From a virus (Duplodnaviria > Heunggongvirae > Uroviricota > Caudoviricetes): a stretch of DNA of 8,517 nt. The notes under the pieces were generated by a model that saw only the letters and a program-made list of their open reading frames with translations, had not been told where the DNA came from and did not search any database. The DNA lies in IMG/VR virus record IMGVR_UViG_2703718777_000017; one strand, given 5' to 3'. Shown here piece after piece: positions 1 through 8,517 of the stretch. Numbering within the stretch: position 1 is the stretch's first letter; the number at the start of each line of letters is the position of its first letter. The translations under genes were made by a program, and so were the position numbers.

Positions 1-1383
1 ACCACTATTCCCAATAACACCACGCACCGCCCCGCCACCCTTCAGCACCTGCGTATCGGTGCCGACCAGAGCGGGAAAATCACAGCTATCTCACATGAAA
101 GCTGGTCCGGAAACCTGCCCGGCGGCACGCCAGAAACGGCGGTACAGCAAAGCGAATTACTCTACGCCGGGGCGAATCGTCATACCGGCCTGCGGCTCGC
201 CACGCTTGATTTGCCGGAAGGGAACGCCATGCGTGCGCCCGGCGAAGCCCCCGGTCTGATGGCGCTCGAAATCGCGATCGACGAACTGGCGGAAAAAGCG
301 GGCATCGATCCCGTCGAGTTTCGCATCCTGAATGACACTCAGGTTGACCCCGCCGACCCGACGCGCCGCTTCTCTCGCCGTCAGCTTATCGAGTGCTTGC
401 GCACCGGAGCGGATAAATTTGGCTGGAAGCAGCGCAACGCCACACCCGGACAGGTGCGCGACGGGGAGTGGCTAGTCGGCCACGGTGTTGCGGCGGGCTT
501 TCGCAATAATCTGCTGGAAAAATCGGGGGCTCGGGTTCACCTCGAACCAAACGGCACCGTTACCGTGGAAACGGACATGACCGACATTGGCACCGGCAGC
601 TACACCATTCTGGCCCAGACGGCAGCGGAAATGCTTGGCGTACCGCTGGAGCAGGTTGCGGTTCACCTCGGCGATTCCAGTTTCCCGGTTTCTGCGGGTT
701 CTGGTGGACAATGGGGCGCGAATACCTCCACCTCCGGCGTTTACGCCGCCTGTATGAAGCTTCGCGAAATGATTGCCTCGGCAGTCGGGTTTGATCCTGA
801 GCAGTCGCAGTTTGCCGACGGCAAGATTACCAACGGTACCCGAAGCGCCACGCTACATGAAGCCACCGCAGGCGGCAGACTGACAGCGGAAGAGAGCATT
901 GAATTCGGAACACTGAGCAAAGAGTACCAGCAGTCGACCTTTGCCGGGCATTTTGTGGAGGTCGGCGTGCATAGCGCGACGGGAGAAGTTCGGGTCCGGC
1001 GTATGCTCGCTGTGTGTGCTGCAGGACGCATCCTGAATCCGAAAACTGCGCGCAGCCAGGTCATTGGCGCAATGACTATGGGCATGGGTGCGGCACTGAT
1101 GGAGGAGCTGGCGGTGGATGACCGTTTGGGCTACTTCGTTAATCACGATATGGCGGGGTATGAGGTGCCGGTCCATGCGGATATCCCAAAACAGGAGGTG
1201 ATTTTCCTGGATGATACCGACCCCATATCCTCCCCGATGAAGGCCAAAGGTGTCGGTGAGTTGGGCCTGTGCGGCGTGAGCGCGGCTATCGCCAACGCGG
1301 TGTATAACGCCACCGGTATTCGGGTACGGGATTATCCCATCACTCTGGATAAGCTGCTCGATAAGCTGCCGGATGTGGTTTAA
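1..1383 (+). CDS. paoC: Aldehyde oxidoreductase / xanthine-dehydrogenase-family molybdopterin-binding large subunit, C-terminal ~460 aa (5' end lies upstream of the window)
   Basis: Frame 1 is open from base 1 to TAA at 1381-1383; the ORF track only reports it from the first start-type codon at 211. The translation carries the XDH-family C-terminal region including KGVGELGLCGVSAAIANAVYNATGIRV (conserved GVGE catalytic-Glu segment). An XdhC-type gene follows 9 bp downstream, as in the E. coli paoABCD locus. GC-rich core-like composition. Symbol assigned from recalled locus organisation, not from a search. Confidence 0.85.
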   Translation, partial: TTIPNNTTHRPATLQHLRIGADQSGKITAISHESWSGNLPGGTPETAVQQSELLYAGANRHTGLRLATLDLPEGNAMRAPGEAPGLMALEIAIDELAEKAGIDPVEFRILNDTQVDPADPTRRFSRRQLIECLRTGADKFGWKQRNATPGQVRDGEWLVGHGVAAGFRNNLLEKSGARVHLEPNGTVTVETDMTDIGTGSYTILAQTAAEMLGVPLEQVAVHLGDSSFPVSAGSGGQWGANTSTSGVYAACMKLREMIASAVGFDPEQSQFADGKITNGTRSATLHEATAGGRLTAEESIEFGTLSKEYQQSTFAGHFVEVGVHSATGEVRVRRMLAVCAAGRILNPKTARSQVIGAMTMGMGAALMEELAVDDRLGYFVNHDMAGYEVPVHADIPKQEVIFLDDTDPISSPMKAKGVGELGLCGVSAAIANAVYNATGIRVRDYPITLDKLLDKLPDVV

Positions 1384-1392
1384 GGAGAAACA

Positions 1393-2349
1393 ATGTCATA
1401 CCCGCTTTTTGATAAAGACGAACACTGGCATAAGCCAGAGCAGGCGTTTCTCACCGATGACCACCGGACCATTCTGCGCTTCGCCGTAGAGGCGCTAATG
1501 TCCGGTAAAGGAGCGGTGCTGGTGACGCTGGTGGAGATACACGGCGGCGCGGCGCGCCCGCTCGGGGCGCAGATGGTGGTTCGCGAAGATGGTCGTTACT
1601 GCGGTTTTGTCTCTGGCGGCTGCGTGGAGGCCGCTGCCGCTTTTGAAGCGCTGGAGATGATGGGCTCAGGCCGCGATCGCGAAATTCGCTATGGCGAAGG
1701 TTCGCCGTGGTTTGACATCGTTCTGCCCTGCGGCGGTGGGATCACGCTGACGCTCCATAAACTACGCTCGGCACAGCCTCTGCTCGCCGTGCTGAACCGT
1801 CTGGAACAGAGAAAACCGGCGGGGCTGCGCTACGATCCGCAAGCACAATCGTTGGTGTGCCTGCCCACACAAACCCGAACGGGCTGGAATCTCAATGGCT
1901 TTGAGGTGGGGTTCAGGCCATGCGTCAGGCTGATGATTTACGGACGTTCTCTTGAGGCGCAGGCAACCGCGAGTCTTGCAGCAGCCACAGGCTATGACAG
2001 CCATATCTTCGATCTTTTTCCGGCCTCAGCCAGCGCTCAGATCGATACCGACACGGCGGTCATTTTGCTGTGCCATGATCTCAACCGGGAGCTGCCAGCA
2101 TTGCAGGCCGCGCGAGAAGCAAAACCCTTTTATCTCGGCGCATTGGGCAGCCATCGAACCCACACGTTACGTCTGCAAAAGCTCCACGAGCTGGGATGGT
2201 CCAGGGAGGAGACAGCGCAAATCCGGGCCCCCGTCGGGATATTCCCCAAAGCCCGGGATGCGCATACTCTGGCACTCTCCGTGCTGGCAGAAATCGCCTC
2301 TGTACGTCTCCATCATGAGGAGGATTCATGCCTGCCCCCGTCGTCCTGA
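1393..2349 (+). CDS. paoD: Molybdenum cofactor insertion chaperone, XdhC/CoxI family (318 aa)
   Basis: ATG at 1393 preceded by AGGAG (1383-1387) directly after the paoC stop, indicating operon coupling. Product length of 318 aa matches my recollection of E. coli PaoD (YagQ). Position immediately downstream of the XDH-family subunit fits an XdhC-type maturation factor. Stop TGA at 2347-2349. Confidence 0.8.
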   Translation: MSYPLFDKDEHWHKPEQAFLTDDHRTILRFAVEALMSGKGAVLVTLVEIHGGAARPLGAQMVVREDGRYCGFVSGGCVEAAAAFEALEMMGSGRDREIRYGEGSPWFDIVLPCGGGITLTLHKLRSAQPLLAVLNRLEQRKPAGLRYDPQAQSLVCLPTQTRTGWNLNGFEVGFRPCVRLMIYGRSLEAQATASLAAATGYDSHIFDLFPASASAQIDTDTAVILLCHDLNRELPALQAAREAKPFYLGALGSHRTHTLRLQKLHELGWSREETAQIRAPVGIFPKARDAHTLALSVLAEIASVRLHHEEDSCLPPSS

Positions 2350-2738
2350 TCCTTGCGGCCGGGCGTGGAGAGCGCTTTCTCGCCTCCGGGGGAAATACCC
2401 ATAAGTGTATCGGCTGGCGTCAGTCCCCGGAGGTTGCGCCTTATCGCTGGCCATTTGAAGAAAACGGGAGAACTTTCGACCTTGCGATTGAACCGCAGAT
2501 TACGACTAATGATCTGCGTCTGATGTTGAGGCTGGCTCTTGCCGGCGGAGGAATAACAATTGCCACTCAGGAAACTTTCAGGCCATATATTGAAAGCGGT
2601 AAGCTTGTATCGCTGCTTGATGACTTTCTTCCACAATTTCCGGGCTTCTATCTGTATTTCCCACAGCGTCGCAATATTGCACCAAAGCTCCGCGCCCTGA
2701 TTGACTACGTCAAAGAATGGCGGCAGCAATTGGTTTAA
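2328..2738 (+). pseudogene. yagP: Chimeric relic ORF (136 aa): MocA/MobA-like nucleotidyltransferase N-terminal motif fused to a LysR-family C-terminal effector-binding fragment
   Basis: ATG at 2328 overlaps the paoD stop by 22 bp and follows GAGGAGGA (2317-2324). N-terminal residues MPAPVVLILAAGRGERF resemble the LAAGxxxR nucleotide-binding start of molybdenum-cofactor nucleotidyltransferases. Residues from about 48 onward (LRLMLRLALAGGGITIATQETFRPYIESGKLVSLLDDF...YLYFPQRRNIAPKLRALIDYV) look like only the C-terminal part of a LysR-type regulator; no HTH domain is present. Length and position match my recollection of the E. coli yagP pseudogene. Confidence 0.55.
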
Positions 2739-2861
2739 ATAGCTGCACCTGCACTGCCTGATGTCAGAACAGTATTTTGATGAATTGCCAAGGTTACAAT
2801 GGCACAAATGCGGCACAGGAGGAAACGTGGTGTATTTAAATATGGGGTAACTCTTTGATTT

Positions 2862-2880
2862 TAATGGCGATAATAGGAGT
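2862..2880 (-). other. tRNA-Thr (thrW-like) 3'-end fragment; putative attachment-site core remnant
   Basis: Reverse complement of 2862-2880 is ACTCCTATTATCGCCATTA. The first 13 nt (2868-2880) are identical to the T-arm/acceptor 3' segment ACTCCTATTATCG of E. coli tRNA-Thr(CGU) as I recall it, and 16 of 19 nt match through the CCA end. It lies between the chromosomal relic ORF and the integrase, exactly at the GC transition. No full tRNA cloverleaf is present. Depends on recalled tRNA sequence. Confidence 0.3.
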
Positions 2881-2966
2881 AAAACACTCGATTAATCTCG
2901 TGTTAATGCCATCACCTACGACCATTACTAATTGATTGAATCTTATAGAAAAAATCATCATTTTCT

Positions 2967-4301
2967 ATGCGTTACAATCAATTTTCACATTACAAACGCT
3001 CCGACACTTTAGCCGGGGAGTTTATGAGATACAAGCCCAATCAATACATAATCTGTGATTCTTACGGTAACTACTATTTAAGGATCACGCTGCCTGTGTA
3101 TATGCAGCCCTTTTTTGAAGGAAAAAGGACGTTTGTCAGGAGTCTACATACAAGTAACCTTCGTGTTGCACGTAGAAAGCGTGATCAGATTGCAGATGAA
3201 TACCATTGTCTACGGGAGAGTGTCGCTCCTGTAAACAGCACAATAGAGAACACGCTGGAACTGTTACGCAGTAAGGCTAAATACGCCAAAACAGCTACCA
3301 GAATGCAAGATACAGCGTCTTCGTGTCCGTCATTGCTTAAAATTCTTGAAATCTACCTGACAATTAACAGCACGAAGAAGAAGCCAGCCACTTTAGCTAA
3401 GGCAAGAAAAGCGGTAGAGATGTTTCTCTCCTACCGTAAAAAGCCTGATATTGCATTGCAAGATGTAAGCCGCACCACTGTTACAGGCTGGATTGAACAC
3501 ATGCAAAAAACCCTTTCACAACAATCAATTGCAAATTATATCAGCCCAATGGCCCAGCTATGGGAGTTAGCTTCATCACGTTACCACGATGCACCAGAAA
3601 GGGCGCTCTCCCCCTGGCGAGGGCATAGGCTTGATGTGGCACAAAGTAGAGAGAGCTATGAGGCATTTTCTAACAAAGAGCTATTGCAGGTGTTGCAAGT
3701 ATTTTCCGGTAATTCAGCAGAAAACAAAGAAATGATAGCTTTGTGTCTTATCGGTGCTTATACAGGTATGCGGATCAATGAGATAGCAAGTCTCACAATA
3801 GACGATGTGAAAGAGATCGAAGGTGTGCTGTGTTTTGAAATCACACAGGGAAAAACGAAAGCTGCGGCACGTGTTGTGCCTGTGCATAGCCTTATCACTC
3901 CATTGGTGTTATCTCTTCGTGAAAAGCCTCACAATGGCTTTTTGTTCTATCACGCCAGCATTACAGAGCGTGCTGATGGTAAACGTTCCACGTGGCACAC
4001 GCAGAGATTTACAAGAGCTAAACGAAAGGCTTTAGGGGAAAAGGGAACAGAAAGGAAGGTGTTTCATTCTCTGAGACACGGAGTAGCACAGCTTCTTGAT
4101 CGAAATCAAATTCCAGAAGACAGGATCGCCCTTCTCCTGGGCCATACACGCGGCAATACAGAAACATTCCGCACATATAGCAAGAATGCAGCTTCTCCAG
4201 TAGAGCTTAAAAAATATATTGAGCTTCTACGCTACCCTGAAATAGAGAAAGGCTTATCAATCAATAAAAAATCAAATTTAAGGCGTAAAACAACGCCATA
4301 G
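2967..4301 (+). CDS. Tyrosine-type site-specific recombinase (phage integrase family), 444 aa; possible alternative start at 3024
   Basis: C-terminal catalytic signature: TGMRINE (Arg codon 3771-3773), then FHSLRHGVAQLL...LLGHTRGNTETFRTYSK, i.e. box II HxLRH at 4065-4079, LLGH, and catalytic Tyr codon at 4176-4178. An in-frame stop at 2946-2948 fixes the earliest start at ATG 2967, which lacks a good SD. The second in-frame ATG at 3024 is preceded by GGGGAG. Position next to the tRNA-fragment junction is typical of island integrases. Confidence 0.85.
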   Translation: MRYNQFSHYKRSDTLAGEFMRYKPNQYIICDSYGNYYLRITLPVYMQPFFEGKRTFVRSLHTSNLRVARRKRDQIADEYHCLRESVAPVNSTIENTLELLRSKAKYAKTATRMQDTASSCPSLLKILEIYLTINSTKKKPATLAKARKAVEMFLSYRKKPDIALQDVSRTTVTGWIEHMQKTLSQQSIANYISPMAQLWELASSRYHDAPERALSPWRGHRLDVAQSRESYEAFSNKELLQVLQVFSGNSAENKEMIALCLIGAYTGMRINEIASLTIDDVKEIEGVLCFEITQGKTKAAARVVPVHSLITPLVLSLREKPHNGFLFYHASITERADGKRSTWHTQRFTRAKRKALGEKGTERKVFHSLRHGVAQLLDRNQIPEDRIALLLGHTRGNTETFRTYSKNAASPVELKKYIELLRYPEIEKGLSINKKSNLRRKTTP

Positions 4302-4381: not shown

Positions 4382-5095
4382 CTATTCCTGTTTAAAGGCA
4401 GGAGTAATAGTGTCTTCACCTTCACTACTTGATTTTTCAGTGTTAACACGTTTTTTCATATTAGCCCCGATGTTCTTAGATGGCTGTGTTTTGATAGCTA
4501 CAGTGTTCACAGTGCCATAAGAAACTAATCTTATTTGCTCAAAGCTAAGATCAAATACCAGGGATTCGCTTGCCTCTTCTGTGTATTCGATTCCTGTTAA
4601 AACAACGTTCTCAAAAGTTTTATTTTCTGTAACAAGAAGAAAAGGCTGTCTACTGTCCATAATCTGATTCAGGTAGTCGATAGCTAATGATCTTCTGTTC
4701 CCGTTCACCCCTGCACTCTTTAACAAGCCAGGATCGCTTTTAATCGGTGTTTCAGTGATCCTTCCTTTAAGAGAAAACTTATTGTTTTTAATTTGAACGT
4801 GATCAGACACAGTAGCACCATTTTCTACGGGGTAGCTTGTAACATCTGCCGAACGTCTCACGTTCACATCGTCAACACTATCAAAGGCCAGTGCCATATA
4901 ATTTTCATAAACATCATTGCCAGAAGATGCCAAGCCACTGGTAACAATAGCAAATCCGTTCTCTCCTTTTGTTTTATTGGCTTTGCTATTTTCGTTTTTT
5001 GTAGAGTTTATATCTTGTTCTGCTTTGTAAACAGCCTGAACGTGTTGTTCTGGAGTATTTGCTGCACGTATGGTTAAAATCCCGGCGGTCGCCAT
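4382..5095 (-). CDS. Hypothetical protein, 237 aa (possible virion or tail-associated protein; function unknown)
   Basis: ATG at 5095 (minus) preceded by AAGGAAAA about 11 nt upstream. Last gene of the minus-strand array, ending 80 bp from the integrase stop. N-terminal K/N/S-rich low-complexity segment, then a segment with alternating hydrophobic residues (FLLVTENKTFENVVLTGIEY...LVFDLSFEQIRLV) suggestive of beta structure. No recognisable catalytic motif. Confidence 0.6.
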   Translation of the reverse strand: MATAGILTIRAANTPEQHVQAVYKAEQDINSTKNENSKANKTKGENGFAIVTSGLASSGNDVYENYMALAFDSVDDVNVRRSADVTSYPVENGATVSDHVQIKNNKFSLKGRITETPIKSDPGLLKSAGVNGNRRSLAIDYLNQIMDSRQPFLLVTENKTFENVVLTGIEYTEEASESLVFDLSFEQIRLVSYGTVNTVAIKTQPSKNIGANMKKRVNTEKSSSEGEDTITPAFKQE

Positions 5096-5129: not shown

Positions 5130-6959
5130 TTACCCGCCGTTGGATTGTCCTGATAAGCTGGTTAATGTTAATGATTTCAAGAAGCTATCCCGACTTGCTC
5201 TCGCTGTAAAATCCACATAATCGCTTAATCTTGATGTGTCTGAATTAATAGTAAGAGGAACCTCTGTTACCACTTCAAATGTAGGATTCAGATTAAACAC
5301 AGGAGATAAATTATAAGCCGGAGTTGTCATTGCAAGATTATTTAAAGCACCCTGTTTGAGATTGGTTATCGGTGCTTCGCTGACTGACATTTTTACATCT
5401 GACACAGAAGAATTATCATCGAAAAGCAATCCCTTAATCGTGTTAAAGAGAGAATGACTATTATCAGGTGTAGTTGTTGCAGTGCCAGCGCCTTTATATT
5501 GGTCAGGAACGAGATTAGAAAGATGCTGTTTCATCCCTTCATTGCTTAATGGCGGTGCATCACCTAAATTTTTCTGAATAGCATCTGTCTTATCATCATT
5601 ACGATTAAACCAGTTTACAATCTTCATAATAGCTTCAAAGAGACTTCCTACAGCTTCTCCCAGCTTCGTAAAATACGGAGTGAGATTAGAAAGGTTTTTC
5701 AAAAACTCTTCCGTTACTTTTGGATCGAGAGATTTCATAAAGCCGTCTACGAATGCTACTTGTCTTGCATCAGAAAGCTGTGAAAGCTGTCTGTTTAGTT
5801 CTCTGAATTTAACAATAGAGTCTTGCTGTGTTTCTGTTAGCCATTTTCCAGAGGCTTTTTGCTGATTAATACTTTCTTGTACATCTTTAACGGAACGTTG
5901 CCAATATTTTGACGTAAGCATCAAATCATCGCCCAGGTCTTCTAAACGTTGTCCAATTTGGGAGTCTGAAAACCCTTTTTTCATCATTCCATTAACAGCC
6001 TTAGAAATTAATCCAGCCGGATTATCAGCAAATTTTTTAAGGTCGCTTTTGTTAATAACACCGATGTTTAGAAGTTCATTAATAGCATTATCACCGCCTT
6101 TCCATTCAGATTTTCCGGTTTTCTTGTCTTTCACCAATTCAGCTTCACTGTAGGATTTTGCGGCACGTTCCCTAACATCTTTCATCTGATCCAGGTATTT
6201 CCTAGCCCCTTGATCACCCATCATAGAGTCAACGCCGTTTCTATAGGCCCATTCTGTAATGTTGTACATCTGGTTAACGTCTACACCGCCAAGCCTTGCA
6301 CGTTGAATTAGCTCTCCTTGTGTCTCAGCATTGGCAAAACTATTAGCCATAAATTCACCGGTTTTACTAACCGCCATCACGCCAGCAGCAGCCGTAGCGC
6401 CTCCAAATAACAGAGCGCCCATAGTGGCGGAATTCCCTGATCCTCCCTTAACGGGGGCTAATTGAACTTTTCTGTTGCCATTAATCTTACGTTGTTGTTG
6501 TTGTAAGCGTTTCATCTGGCTATTCATACGTGCAAGCGAGATAGCCCCTTGCTCATATTGTTTCGCTATCTCTCTAGCCTGTGCAATAGCTTTGTATTGT
6601 TCCGCTACAGAGAGGCGGTGCATTGCACTGATAGAGCTTGACACATCAAGGAGCTTTAATTCTGCTTTCTCTTTACGTGCTGCTATTTGTTGCTGTTGCC
6701 TTGCCTGTGCTCTTGCTGCGGCAGCTTGTGCTCTTTGATTCTGTTTTTCTGTTTTGGCTTTCTGTTGAGCAATCTTATCTACTTCGCTTTGTGCTTTCTT
6801 ATAGCCTTTAGTGACATTATCAAATCTTAATTTAGCTGGCTTGATGTTTTCTGCGAATTCCTTTAAGCCTGTAATAGAGTCTTTCGCTTTTTTCAAGCTG
6901 TCTTTATCTACACTAAATGTAACTGTGTTCTTAATTTTAGAAGTGTTAATTTCTAACAT
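5130..6959 (-). CDS. Large coiled-coil protein, 609 aa; tape-measure-like or internal virion (ejection) protein-like architecture, function unverified
   Basis: ATG at 6959 (minus) preceded by GGGGA with a 6-nt spacer, and only 18 bp after the stop of the upstream 66-aa gene, so an operon. The N-terminal ~170 aa is Q/A/R/K-rich, with heptad-like character (QKAKTEKQNQRAQAAAARAQARQQQQIAARKEKAELKL). A Gly/Ala hydrophobic segment (GGSGNSATMGALLFGGATAAAGVMAVSKTG) follows, then a long helical central region and an S/T/N-rich C-terminus. This arrangement is common in phage tape-measure and ejection proteins. The call is architectural, not homology-based. Confidence 0.7.
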   Translation of the reverse strand: MLEINTSKIKNTVTFSVDKDSLKKAKDSITGLKEFAENIKPAKLRFDNVTKGYKKAQSEVDKIAQQKAKTEKQNQRAQAAAARAQARQQQQIAARKEKAELKLLDVSSSISAMHRLSVAEQYKAIAQAREIAKQYEQGAISLARMNSQMKRLQQQQRKINGNRKVQLAPVKGGSGNSATMGALLFGGATAAAGVMAVSKTGEFMANSFANAETQGELIQRARLGGVDVNQMYNITEWAYRNGVDSMMGDQGARKYLDQMKDVRERAAKSYSEAELVKDKKTGKSEWKGGDNAINELLNIGVINKSDLKKFADNPAGLISKAVNGMMKKGFSDSQIGQRLEDLGDDLMLTSKYWQRSVKDVQESINQQKASGKWLTETQQDSIVKFRELNRQLSQLSDARQVAFVDGFMKSLDPKVTEEFLKNLSNLTPYFTKLGEAVGSLFEAIMKIVNWFNRNDDKTDAIQKNLGDAPPLSNEGMKQHLSNLVPDQYKGAGTATTTPDNSHSLFNTIKGLLFDDNSSVSDVKMSVSEAPITNLKQGALNNLAMTTPAYNLSPVFNLNPTFEVVTEVPLTINSDTSRLSDYVDFTARASRDSFLKSLTLTSLSGQSNGG

Positions 6960-6977: not shown

Positions 6978-7178
6978 TCATTTTTTACCACCTTCTTTGC
7001 TTAAGAAATGGTGTAGAGCCTGATCAATACTCTCGTTTAGTCTGAACATACGGGCTTTTACTCCTTCATATGGAACATCTAAGAGAGAACATAGATATTT
7101 CAGATTTAACAAGCCTCTAGAATCATTAGCATCTAAATGTACGTGTACACCATTTTTTGATTTCAGAATCACTTCCAT
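6978..7178 (-). CDS. Small hypothetical protein, 66 aa
   Basis: ATG at 7178 (minus) preceded by GAGGTGA with a 7-nt spacer. It sits directly downstream of the terminator that follows the capsid-like gene and is tightly coupled to the 609-aa gene. Basic C-terminus (KEGGKK). Function unknown. Confidence 0.5.
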   Translation of the reverse strand: MEVILKSKNGVHVHLDANDSRGLLNLKYLCSLLDVPYEGVKARMFRLNESIDQALHHFLSKEGGKK

Positions 7179-7264: not shown

Positions 7265-8293
7265 TTATTTAACAGTGATTTGAACGGAGAAGCCAACGCC
7301 GTGGTTTACAACCATCTGGCTATTCTCTGTAACAACGTTAACAGCATCACCACGAGAAGATTCATAGCTGTAGCTATACACCTCAGCAGGAGCGGCATTG
7401 ATCAGTTCAAAGGTGCTGGAAGCAGCCCCGTAGATGTTCTGATATACATTAGAGCCTTTAGCAAACTTCGGAACCGCTACAGCGTCTGCGGTCATATGTG
7501 CAAGGTGTAGCGGATCTACCAGTTTAACAACATCAATGTTAGTTCCTGGAATAGTGAACGCTGTCACCCCCGGTAGCAGGTCACGACGCTGATACACAAC
7601 GTTCCCTTCTTCCAGTGGGCTTACATACTGGAATGCGTTTGCCATACCCGCAGAGAATCGAATTGCAGAGAAGGCTTCAGGTTTACAGAACACAACAACA
7701 CGCTCAATGGTTGCAGCCTGTTTTTGTGCCTTAGCAATCATATCCGTAGCAATCTGATCAAATTCTTTAAAAATCTTCGTGGTGTCAGTGCTGGAAGCGT
7801 TCACAGTGGCTTTCATAGCTGATACGTTAAACAGCTTGCCCCATTCGATAAGAACATCATCAGTTTTAGGCGTGTAAGTTTTACCGCTAAACAGAGATGC
7901 AGCCAGCACGCTCTCTTTTGTACGCTGATACGCTACGTGGTGTTTAGCAACATAGTCAGCATAGATATCAGTGAGTGTTTCCTGAAAATCAGTGCCAGGC
8001 TTACGCTTGCCTTGAACATCAGAAGGACGGATCACATCTTCACGAAGAAAATACGGGATTTCAATAAGCCATTCTTTACCTTGTTCTCGCTTAGTAACGT
8101 TGTGTTCAGAAGAGAAACGAGAGGTTTCTTTGTTAAAGAGAGATTCGTTGCTTTCGACAAGCTGGGAAACAGCTACTTTATGAGAACTAACGCCCACCGG
8201 ATCAGTGAAGTCGAGGGTAGAGAGCAGAAAGTTACGCGTGCTGTGTGTCTGGAAAAGCGGAGCTAAATCAACGTAATCATTACCTAGAATCAT
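7265..8293 (-). CDS. Putative phage major capsid-like protein, 342 aa (family assignment tentative)
   Basis: ATG at 8293 (minus) preceded by AAGGAA with a 6-nt spacer, 15 bp after the stop of the upstream partial gene. Followed by a strong intrinsic terminator, as expected for an abundantly expressed structural gene. The segment IERVVVFCKPEAFSAI resembles, from memory, the DRVFYCDPDSYSAI segment of T7-type (HK97-fold) major capsid proteins. Size is typical of HK97-fold capsid proteins. No search or structure prediction was possible. Confidence 0.6.
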   Translation of the reverse strand: MILGNDYVDLAPLFQTHSTRNFLLSTLDFTDPVGVSSHKVAVSQLVESNESLFNKETSRFSSEHNVTKREQGKEWLIEIPYFLREDVIRPSDVQGKRKPGTDFQETLTDIYADYVAKHHVAYQRTKESVLAASLFSGKTYTPKTDDVLIEWGKLFNVSAMKATVNASSTDTTKIFKEFDQIATDMIAKAQKQAATIERVVVFCKPEAFSAIRFSAGMANAFQYVSPLEEGNVVYQRRDLLPGVTAFTIPGTNIDVVKLVDPLHLAHMTADAVAVPKFAKGSNVYQNIYGAASSTFELINAAPAEVYSYSYESSRGDAVNVVTENSQMVVNHGVGFSVQITVK

Positions 8294-8308: not shown

Positions 8309-8517
8309 TTAAGAAGTGAAAACAGAATGGAACCCTTCAAGCTGAAAGCCTTTTTTAATTAATGCTGTTTTTGCTGCTTCACTTACAGCATTCAGGGCAT
8401 CAGCTTTGATGCATACAAGCCCAGCATTGCTACGTAGCACATCTACAGGCTTGTTTTCCCCAGCCGTTACAAATTCACTCAGAACAACATTGATCTTACC
8501 CAGCAATAGTGGACACG
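8309..8517 (-). CDS. Hypothetical protein, C-terminal part only (gene starts beyond the window); possibly a scaffold or head-associated partner of the capsid-like gene
   Basis: The minus-strand frame is open from the window edge (8517) to TAA at 8309-8311. The ORF track's start at 8506 is a TTG and probably not the true start. Stop is 15 bp upstream of the capsid-like gene's ATG, so co-transcription is likely. Confidence 0.5.
   Translation of the reverse strand, partial: CPLLLGKINVVLSEFVTAGENKPVDVLRSNAGLVCIKADALNAVSEAAKTALIKKGFQLEGFHSVFTS

Follow-up and report, generated by a model that had tools for sequence, protein, structure and literature searches.

Analysed here is a stretch of 8,517 nucleotides of viral DNA (Caudoviricetes; IMG/VR record IMGVR_UViG_2703718777_000017), which in its full length will be referred to as the window, and in particular a 609-aa open reading frame (ORF) on its minus strand at positions 5130–6959. 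Judged by ordinary family assignment, the encoded protein can be attributed with high confidence to the phage tail tape measure proteins (TMPs), and its setting is apparently that of a core tail gene of an undescribed family of satellite-like elements aimed at phi92-like lytic phages. The first 2750 bases of the window belong to the Escherichia coli core genome (paoC, of which the 3′ part is present, paoD, and a LysR fragment, in this order) and have a guanine plus cytosine (GC) content of 53–63 %. A mobile island starts at about position 2860, where the GC content falls to about 40 %. Its integrase-side end is marked by an attachment site (att)-like direct repeat (2862–2886) that was recognised by repeat comparison with an intact island (L003, see below) and represents a degenerate copy of the 3′ end of thrW. 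This repeat is followed on the plus strand by the gene for the island tyrosine integrase (2967–4301, or from 3024 if the RefSeq start is used), which is identified by Pfam and PHROG matches and combines DUF6538, SAM-like and Phage_integrase domains. Converging on the integrase gene is a row of minus-strand genes that comprises, in the order of transcription, the 3′ part of a gene for a protein of ~120 aa (8309–8490), a capsid gene (7265–8293), a gene for a 66-aa protein (6978–7178), the 609-aa ORF, and a gene for a 237-aa protein (4382–5095). The position of the ORF between the 66-aa and the 237-aa reading frames, as given in the original prediction, is thus confirmed, and the capsid terminator that had been placed upstream of it corresponds to a terminator-like hairpin with a T-run (7240–7224, minus strand) that follows the capsid gene and was found by a consensus scan and reading of the sequence only.

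A tape measure protein and its neighbour

The ORF is introduced by an ATG start codon with a good Shine–Dalgarno sequence and represents a genuine, undamaged gene that is subject to purifying selection. Near-identical copies of 608–614 aa number in the thousands in Escherichia, and comparison with a 96 %-identical allele gave a ratio of non-synonymous to synonymous substitution rates (dN/dS) of 0.16, both of which make it more than a chance reading frame. The layout first read from the letters, that is, a coiled coil followed by a Gly/Ala-rich hydrophobic stretch, a helical body, and an S/T/N-rich tail, agrees with composition, hydropathy, and structure prediction alike. Residues 51–165 consist to 63 % of Q/A/R/K/E, residues 166–205 to 42 % of Gly/Ala, and residues 461–609 to 32 % of S/T/N, with the hydropathy peak located at residues 179–197 (TMGALLFGGATAAAGVMAV, KD19 = 1.6). 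An AlphaFold2 model, for which an alignment of 20 sequences served as input, contains long helices at 47–111, 118–136, and 142–167 (predicted local distance difference test, pLDDT, of 75–95), a hydrophobic linker (169–207) that is of low confidence and unstructured, a confidently predicted helical domain at about 210–390, and a poorly defined C-terminal third. A lytic or peptidase domain, which had been considered at the outset, did not emerge: Foldseek searches with the model returned generic helical proteins only, and no enzyme or effector domain was recognised in the protein by Pfam, NCBIfam, PADLOC, or Foldseek. PADLOC and NCBIfam yielded nothing useful.

The tape-measure look of the protein is borne out by homology. 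It matches phrog_16051, annotated as "tail length tape measure protein" (E = 9e-54, PHROGs), and a sequence search of the PDB retrieved gp134 of phage phi92 (21vq chain V, E = 2e-37), to which it is also aligned by BLASTP (E = 8e-34, with a further, N-terminal segment of 55 % identity). In phi92, gp134 is a trimeric TMP, residues 631–656 of which were seen within the baseplate by electron cryomicroscopy (PMC13450770). The island TMP can be aligned over its entire length with TMPs from phages that have contractile tails (26–55 % identity to phi92 gp134), and conservation is unevenly distributed along its length: residues 1–30 are 67–83 % and residues 571–609 are 40–67 % identical to phage TMPs, residues 241–300 are ~45 % identical, and the portions outside these three segments reach 7–30 %. 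The conserved C-terminus includes the portion by which the phage protein docks in the baseplate of phi92, and in the segment aligned to phi92 residues 631–656, 17 of 26 positions match phiWec188 (as counted by hand from the alignment). Two internal segments of the phage proteins are missing from the island form, namely a linker rich in Pro/Gly that follows residue ~66 and an Arg/Glu-rich helix of ~40 aa that precedes the hydrophobic stretch, and overall the island TMP is 42–50 aa shorter than the phi92-type protein.

The 237-aa protein, the gene of which starts 34 nt after the TMP gene, had been regarded as uninformative, but proved to be a homologue of phi92 gp135 (PDB 21vq_N, E = 2e-78; 60 % identity over 205 aa) and a member of the Pfam family Dit_like (PF21821, E = 3e-29). 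The phage protein is the hexameric tube initiator (PMC13450770). The same order of a TMP gene followed by an initiator gene is found in phi92, phiWec188, Klebsiella phage 05F01, and a 140-kb metagenomic phage contig (L011). Relative to phages, no part of the island is more strongly conserved than the initiator, the gene of which has a dN/dS of 0.07 and includes 79 nt at 91 % nucleotide identity to Justusliebigvirus EC_OE_11. The nearest phage relatives of both TMP and initiator are Stephanstirmvirinae of E. coli, with initiator identities of ~60 % for Justusliebigvirus and ~56 % for Phapecoctavirus. The earlier statement that the TMP has no tail partner therefore holds in part: a distal-tail gene does flank it, whereas tube, sheath, and recognisable chaperone genes are indeed missing. 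Two genomes labelled 'Campylobacter phage', MG065661 (C9) and MG065674 (A140), score exactly as E. coli rV5-like phages do for initiator and TMP, and their host labels look doubtful.

The thrW island and its relatives

Complete genomes show that the TMP and initiator genes reside on a 12.35-kb island at the tRNA-Thr gene thrW, which is the CP4-6 site. Intact islands are present in strains fEC.1 (NZ_CP085638) and 89-3156. In that of fEC.1 (L003), a 28-nt repeat at 14062–14089 matches the thrW 3′ end at 26414–26441, 12,352 bp apart; relative to it, the att copy in the window is 3 nt (TGC) short. The island encodes the integrase, a Rep-like HTH_36 protein with a predicted role in replication (E = 4e-12 against PHROG replication initiators), an Arc-like regulator, a serine invertase, products of small unknown genes, and a late operon of p70, p120, capsid protein, p66, TMP, and tube initiator. 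A stretch of 1.85 kb without annotated gene (22716–24569 in L003) harbours five iteron-like repeats of ~24 nt (23795–23935) and three other short direct-repeat pairs and probably constitutes the origin and control region. Rfam recognised only the tRNA on the island and nothing in this non-coding stretch. Neither terminase, portal, sheath, tube, hub, fibre, nor tail assembly chaperone (TAC) was detected on the E. coli island by Pfam and PHROGs, and PADLOC gave 0 matches among 10 island proteins. The module is carried by 242 of 5,426 complete E. coli genomes (at least 80 % of a 5.7-kb segment), and its structural genes have dN/dS values of 0.06–0.16. Matches in IMG/VR are predicted proviral regions on contigs of 19–76 kb with TMPs that are 88–99 % identical, and are uninformative on packaging. 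A promoter-like motif, CTGTRTGYAAC, that occurs downstream of a hairpin in several islands shows no enrichment in phi92 and is absent from the E. coli island.

The island major capsid protein (MCP) belongs to PF03864 (Phage_cap_E, HK97-type fold; E = 6e-14, Pfam) and is very divergent, its best matches in the phage collection searched being only 20–25 % identical; the dN/dS of its gene is 0.06. Island capsids come in two types that are only ~15 % identical, although their genes take the same place within a shared gene order (L008 8637–9677 and L009 720–1760 as compared to 7265–8293 in the window). In every MCP-bearing element checked, the TMP gene is preceded by a gene for a protein of 60–76 aa (66 aa in the window) that is conserved in both position and sequence. 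The 66-aa protein matches no Pfam or PHROG family, including those of TACs, and its AlphaFold2 model (pLDDT 74), a beta-hairpin and two helices, has no structural match in the PDB according to Foldseek. As an equivalent of phi92 gp133 it was rejected (hhalign probability of 0.07 %), and comparison with the gp132 C-terminus did not make it a chaperone either (hhalign only 5 %). When the profiles of seven island protein families were compared with those of 20 phi92 late proteins, nothing significant was obtained. The three best weak matches, with probabilities of 1–5 %, pair p62 with the TAC C-terminus (gp132), p120 with the cement protein (gp123), and p70 with the scaffold C-terminus (gp122). 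In each case, p70, p120, and p62 (19880–20092, 19521–19883, and 18183–18386 in L003) best match their positional phage counterparts, and they may be miniaturised versions of gp122, gp123, and gp132, which should be read as a lead and not as a result.

The gene for the ~120-aa protein is complete in L003 (120 aa, 19521–19883) and truncated by an IS3 element in the window, as seen by alignment of the two. The window sequence is identical to that of an IS3-bearing strain (L001, with IS3 at 25692–26940) and diverges from L003 at 8491, so that its last bases (8491–8517) are the left end of the IS3 element lying inside the ~120-aa gene and a short ORF at 8309–8506 starts within IS3.

An exhaustive HMMER search with the TMP among 1.84 billion representatives yielded only 73 clusters. 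By alignment, full-length TMPs split into a short form that is devoid of the two internal segments mentioned above and a long form that has both. Of the phage protein, island TMPs retain the N-terminal ~30 and the C-terminal ~40 residues. Genomic contexts were checked for ten short-form elements, i. e., eight from the HMMER search, one from a capsid-seeded scan that covered one genome per species (L016), and the island of the window. All ten, with Buttiauxella, Kluyvera, Scandinavium, and Citrobacter among the genera represented, are small elements, and nine of them have in common a core of the ~120-aa gene, the capsid gene, the 60–76-aa gene, and the TMP gene, which in some, but not in others, is followed by genes for Dit-like and Pam3_gp18-like proteins and for an integrase. 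The TMPs of the short-form relatives are only 27–39 % identical to that of the window (A2/A3 alignments, with one left out). Long-form TMPs, on the other hand, were encoded in 140–150-kb phages with complete tail modules in all four contexts inspected. Verified TMP lengths amount to 596–636 aa for islands and 634–659 aa for phages. Loci from the capsid-seeded scan were found in Escherichia, Enterobacter, Buttiauxella, Kluyvera, Scandinavium, and Citrobacter, with the common order Rep, p91, p136, p121, p70, p120, capsid, p62, TMP, an optional Dit, and integrase; the same type of integrase as in the window lies at the TMP end of the relatives L005, L009, L016, L017, L020, and L023. One family member is episomal: the 14,065-bp contig L024 has an exact terminal overlap of 30 nt and is therefore a circular assembly. 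It encodes Rep-like and ParA-like proteins, a 185-aa recombinase, capsid, TMP, and a Dit-like protein, but no further structural protein; Pfam and PHROGs revealed neither terminase and portal nor sheath, tube, hub, or fibres. No description of this island family was found in the searchable literature; the search was incomplete and novelty is thus unproven.

A proposed satellite of phi92-like phages

The interpretation towards which we lean, with moderate confidence, regards the 609-aa protein as a satellite-encoded TMP; the satellite would parasitise phi92-like phages and make chimeric tails. The missing tube would be better explained in this way, with the gene on a small, non-autonomous element that would borrow the tube and sheath of its helper. 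The wider proposition, namely that there is a widespread and undescribed satellite family in Enterobacterales, chromosomal or episomal, that relies on virulent phi92/phAPEC8-like helpers and combines its own capsid and TMP with stolen tube, sheath, and baseplate, seems to us evenly balanced. The predicted helpers are Stephanstirmvirinae, since these are the nearest phage relatives of both proteins. Upon infection by such a large, virulent phi92-like myophage (Justusliebigvirus or Phapecoctavirus), the island would excise and replicate. A trimer of the island TMP and a hexamer of its initiator would dock on the helper hub and spike by means of the conserved C-terminal ~40 residues of the TMP and the conserved initiator, and the conserved N-terminal ~30 residues of the TMP would keep contact with the assembly or terminator factors of the helper. 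Helper tube and sheath would then polymerise along the island ruler to give a chimeric contractile tail ~1–2 rings shorter than that of the helper: based on the 95 aa per 10 nm of the PLEs (see below) and 0.15 nm per helical residue, a ruler that is 42–50 aa shorter would shorten a 24-ring tail by ~5–8 nm. The chimeric tail would finally be joined to capsids that consist of the island-encoded capsid protein and are sized for ~12 kb, and the hydrophobic Gly/Ala segment may, as in other TMPs, help to deliver the genome through the envelope. Possessing its own ruler could conceivably free the island from, or make it immune to, any block of the helper TMP, and could also divert helper baseplates.

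A precedent for such a strategy is provided by the PLEs of Vibrio cholerae, which encode their own TMP, TAC, and BhuB and replace the TMP and BhuB of phage ICP1.(PMC12987554) The resulting chimeric tails, with tube, sheath, and baseplate of ICP1, are 10 nm shorter, and deletion of the PLE tmp gene lowers transduction by 96–99.9 %.(PMC12987554) The island resembles the PLEs in being a small integrative element with a large virulent myophage as its (predicted) target, in having its own TMP gene beside a gene for a small baseplate-core protein, and in a TMP that is shorter than that of the (predicted) helper. In both systems, conservation is higher for the core protein than for the TMP (41 % vs 20 % for PLE, 60 % vs 26–55 % for the island). 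The logic of the PLEs fits the island because the ends of the TMP are kept while its body is divergent, the initiator is most conserved, and other tail genes are missing. There are also clear differences: the PLEs live in V. cholerae with ICP1 as helper, whereas the island is found in Escherichia and other Enterobacterales with Stephanstirmvirinae as predicted helpers; a TAC is part of the PLE set, whereas the island has a TMP and a tube initiator, but no recognisable TAC; PLE remodels the ICP1 coat, whereas the island encodes its own capsid protein; and the island Rep is of the HTH_36 type, unlike that of PLE. The PLEs are likened here by gene content, to which a CapR-domain protein in one relative can be added. 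With regard to the phage side, phi92 gp134/gp135 correspond to island TMP and initiator in gene order, conserved ends, and the helical and hydrophobic layout. In phi92, however, the TMP gene belongs to a 148-kb phage and is preceded by TAC (gp132/gp133), tube, and sheath genes, whereas that of the 12-kb chromosomal island lacks these, including the Phage_TAC_15 gene that precedes phage TMP genes.

Other satellites share individual traits. The cf-PICIs likewise have their own capsid gene and take tail parts from a helper (as predicted for the island), but possess the entire set of head and packaging genes (protease, portal, connectors, terminases) where the island has the capsid protein and small unknown proteins only; putative tmp genes have been noted in some of them (PMC12987554, Extended Data Fig. 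10). P4-like satellites are integrative E. coli elements of similar size (~11–12 kb) that depend on a myophage for virion parts, which is predicted for the island, too. P4 encodes neither capsid nor TMP and its helper P2 is temperate, and in contrast to P4-like satellites no genes for Psu, Delta, Sid, or alpha-primase were found on the island. The Tai systems (PMC11364771), finally, are also borne by satellites or prophages and interfere with phage tail assembly, but their proteins are inhibitors and not structural homologues, and the island has no PADLOC match.

Several observations weigh against the satellite interpretation. The island capsid protein is only ~22 % identical to phi92 gp124, and co-assembly with the portal and scaffold of the helper is therefore not obvious. 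No TAC, small terminase, or pac/cos site was recognised on the island, and no promoter motif was found to be shared with the phage. The difference in length between island and phage TMPs is small and their ranges touch. The tube initiator is absent from several relatives and therefore not essential to the satellite scheme. In the island copy of the window, the ~120-aa gene is interrupted by IS3 and 3 nt are missing from the att repeat; this copy may be immobile or defective, even if the family is active. Moreover, we infer the link to and dependence on a helper, induction, packaging, and the incorporation of the TMP into tails together with its effect on their length and its benefit to the island.

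Among the alternatives, the one to be taken most seriously, albeit still improbable, is that island TMP and initiator act as a dominant-negative assembly decoy that gets into helper baseplates, poisons or mis-sizes helper tails, and protects the bacterial population without any transfer of particles. Conserved docking ends and a divergent body would suit such a competitor, relatives bear defence-type cargo (SduA_C, Rap1a, Imm_superinfect), and satellites and prophages that block tail assembly are known from the Tai systems (PMC11364771) and from Rta of PLE11 (PMC12987554). The capsid gene, however, is linked to the TMP gene in nine of the ten elements, along with functions in replication, partition, and integration, which points to the making and moving of particles, and no PADLOC model matches. 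A decoy would, in any case, be compatible with the satellite model and not exclusive of it. Decay of a prophage to a remnant whose genes have no present function might account for the location at thrW, the locus of the cryptic prophage CP4-6, for the IS3 insertion and the damaged att repeat of the window copy, and for the incomplete set of tail genes. We regard it as quite unlikely, given that the donor-like phages have genomes of 145–150 kb and are classified in the Stephanstirmvirinae, which are known as virulent and are not known to integrate, that the compact gene order recurs across genera at 27–39 % TMP identity, that dN/dS is 0.06–0.16 and the length of the ORF is held at 608–614 aa in thousands of genomes, and that a circular 14-kb relative exists.

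The original prediction had instead considered a scaffold, an effector that acts on membranes, or, in a podovirus-like particle, an internal core or ejection protein, with which the hydrophobic Gly/Ala segment, the coiled coil, and the lack of a tube or sheath gene nearby would be in line. These options have become very improbable, as the relatives of the protein are all contractile-tail TMPs or island-borne copies thereof, the alignment with the former extends from end to end and includes one that was seen in a baseplate structure, the next gene encodes a tube initiator that would have no role in a podovirus, and no effector or enzyme domain was found. An equally slim chance is given to a minimal autonomous particle, similar to a gene-transfer agent or a tailocin, that forms without any helper: the island does have its own capsid, TMP, and initiator, and one episomal member carries ParA and Rep, but portal, terminase, tube, sheath, hub, and fibres are undetectable by Pfam and PHROGs in the circular relative and in the E. 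coli island alike.

Should the satellite interpretation be correct, chimeric-tail piracy, so far shown only for the PLEs of Vibrio, would be a general strategy that extends from this single system to Enterobacterales, with the tape measure as the core satellite-encoded tail part. Such elements would, to our knowledge, also be the first E. coli satellites that exploit lytic phages. Phages of the phi92-like and phAPEC8-like groups are candidates for therapy and biocontrol, and ~4–5 % of complete E. coli genomes would carry an element that hijacks, and probably blunts, them. The island would furthermore offer a tractable E. coli model for why and how a satellite tape measure is chosen over that of the helper, for which the conserved ends and the deleted internal segments suggest docking sites and targets of interference. 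Even an effect restricted to interference with assembly would make the island a new kind of structural-mimic defence.

Additional features of related islands

At the regulatory end of most relatives (L005, L007, L008, L012, L016, L017, L020, L023, and L024), a gene for a tyrosine recombinase of 185–205 aa (e. g., L007 1929–2489) is accompanied by a gene for a protein of 60–67 aa. The equivalent end of the E. coli island is occupied by the serine invertase/resolvase gene (L003 24569–25108), and both kinds of enzyme may serve in multimer resolution. Defence-type cargo is found at the edges of related islands, for example, SduA_C (Shedu) at 655–1668 in L007 and Rap1a at 2373–2729 in L012. In L022 (4060–5475 and 9001–11581), TMP and Dit-like genes are present and no capsid gene was called; this locus also encodes Rap1a and Imm_superinfect proteins as well as a 471-aa protein with the Pfam domain CapR (PF21817, named after CapR of Vibrio PLE), which may be a link to PLE-like elements. 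In L023, a P4-like satellite (13156–18066; integrase, P4 cII, Psu, and Ogr/Delta) directly adjoins the family member as a separate unit in tandem.

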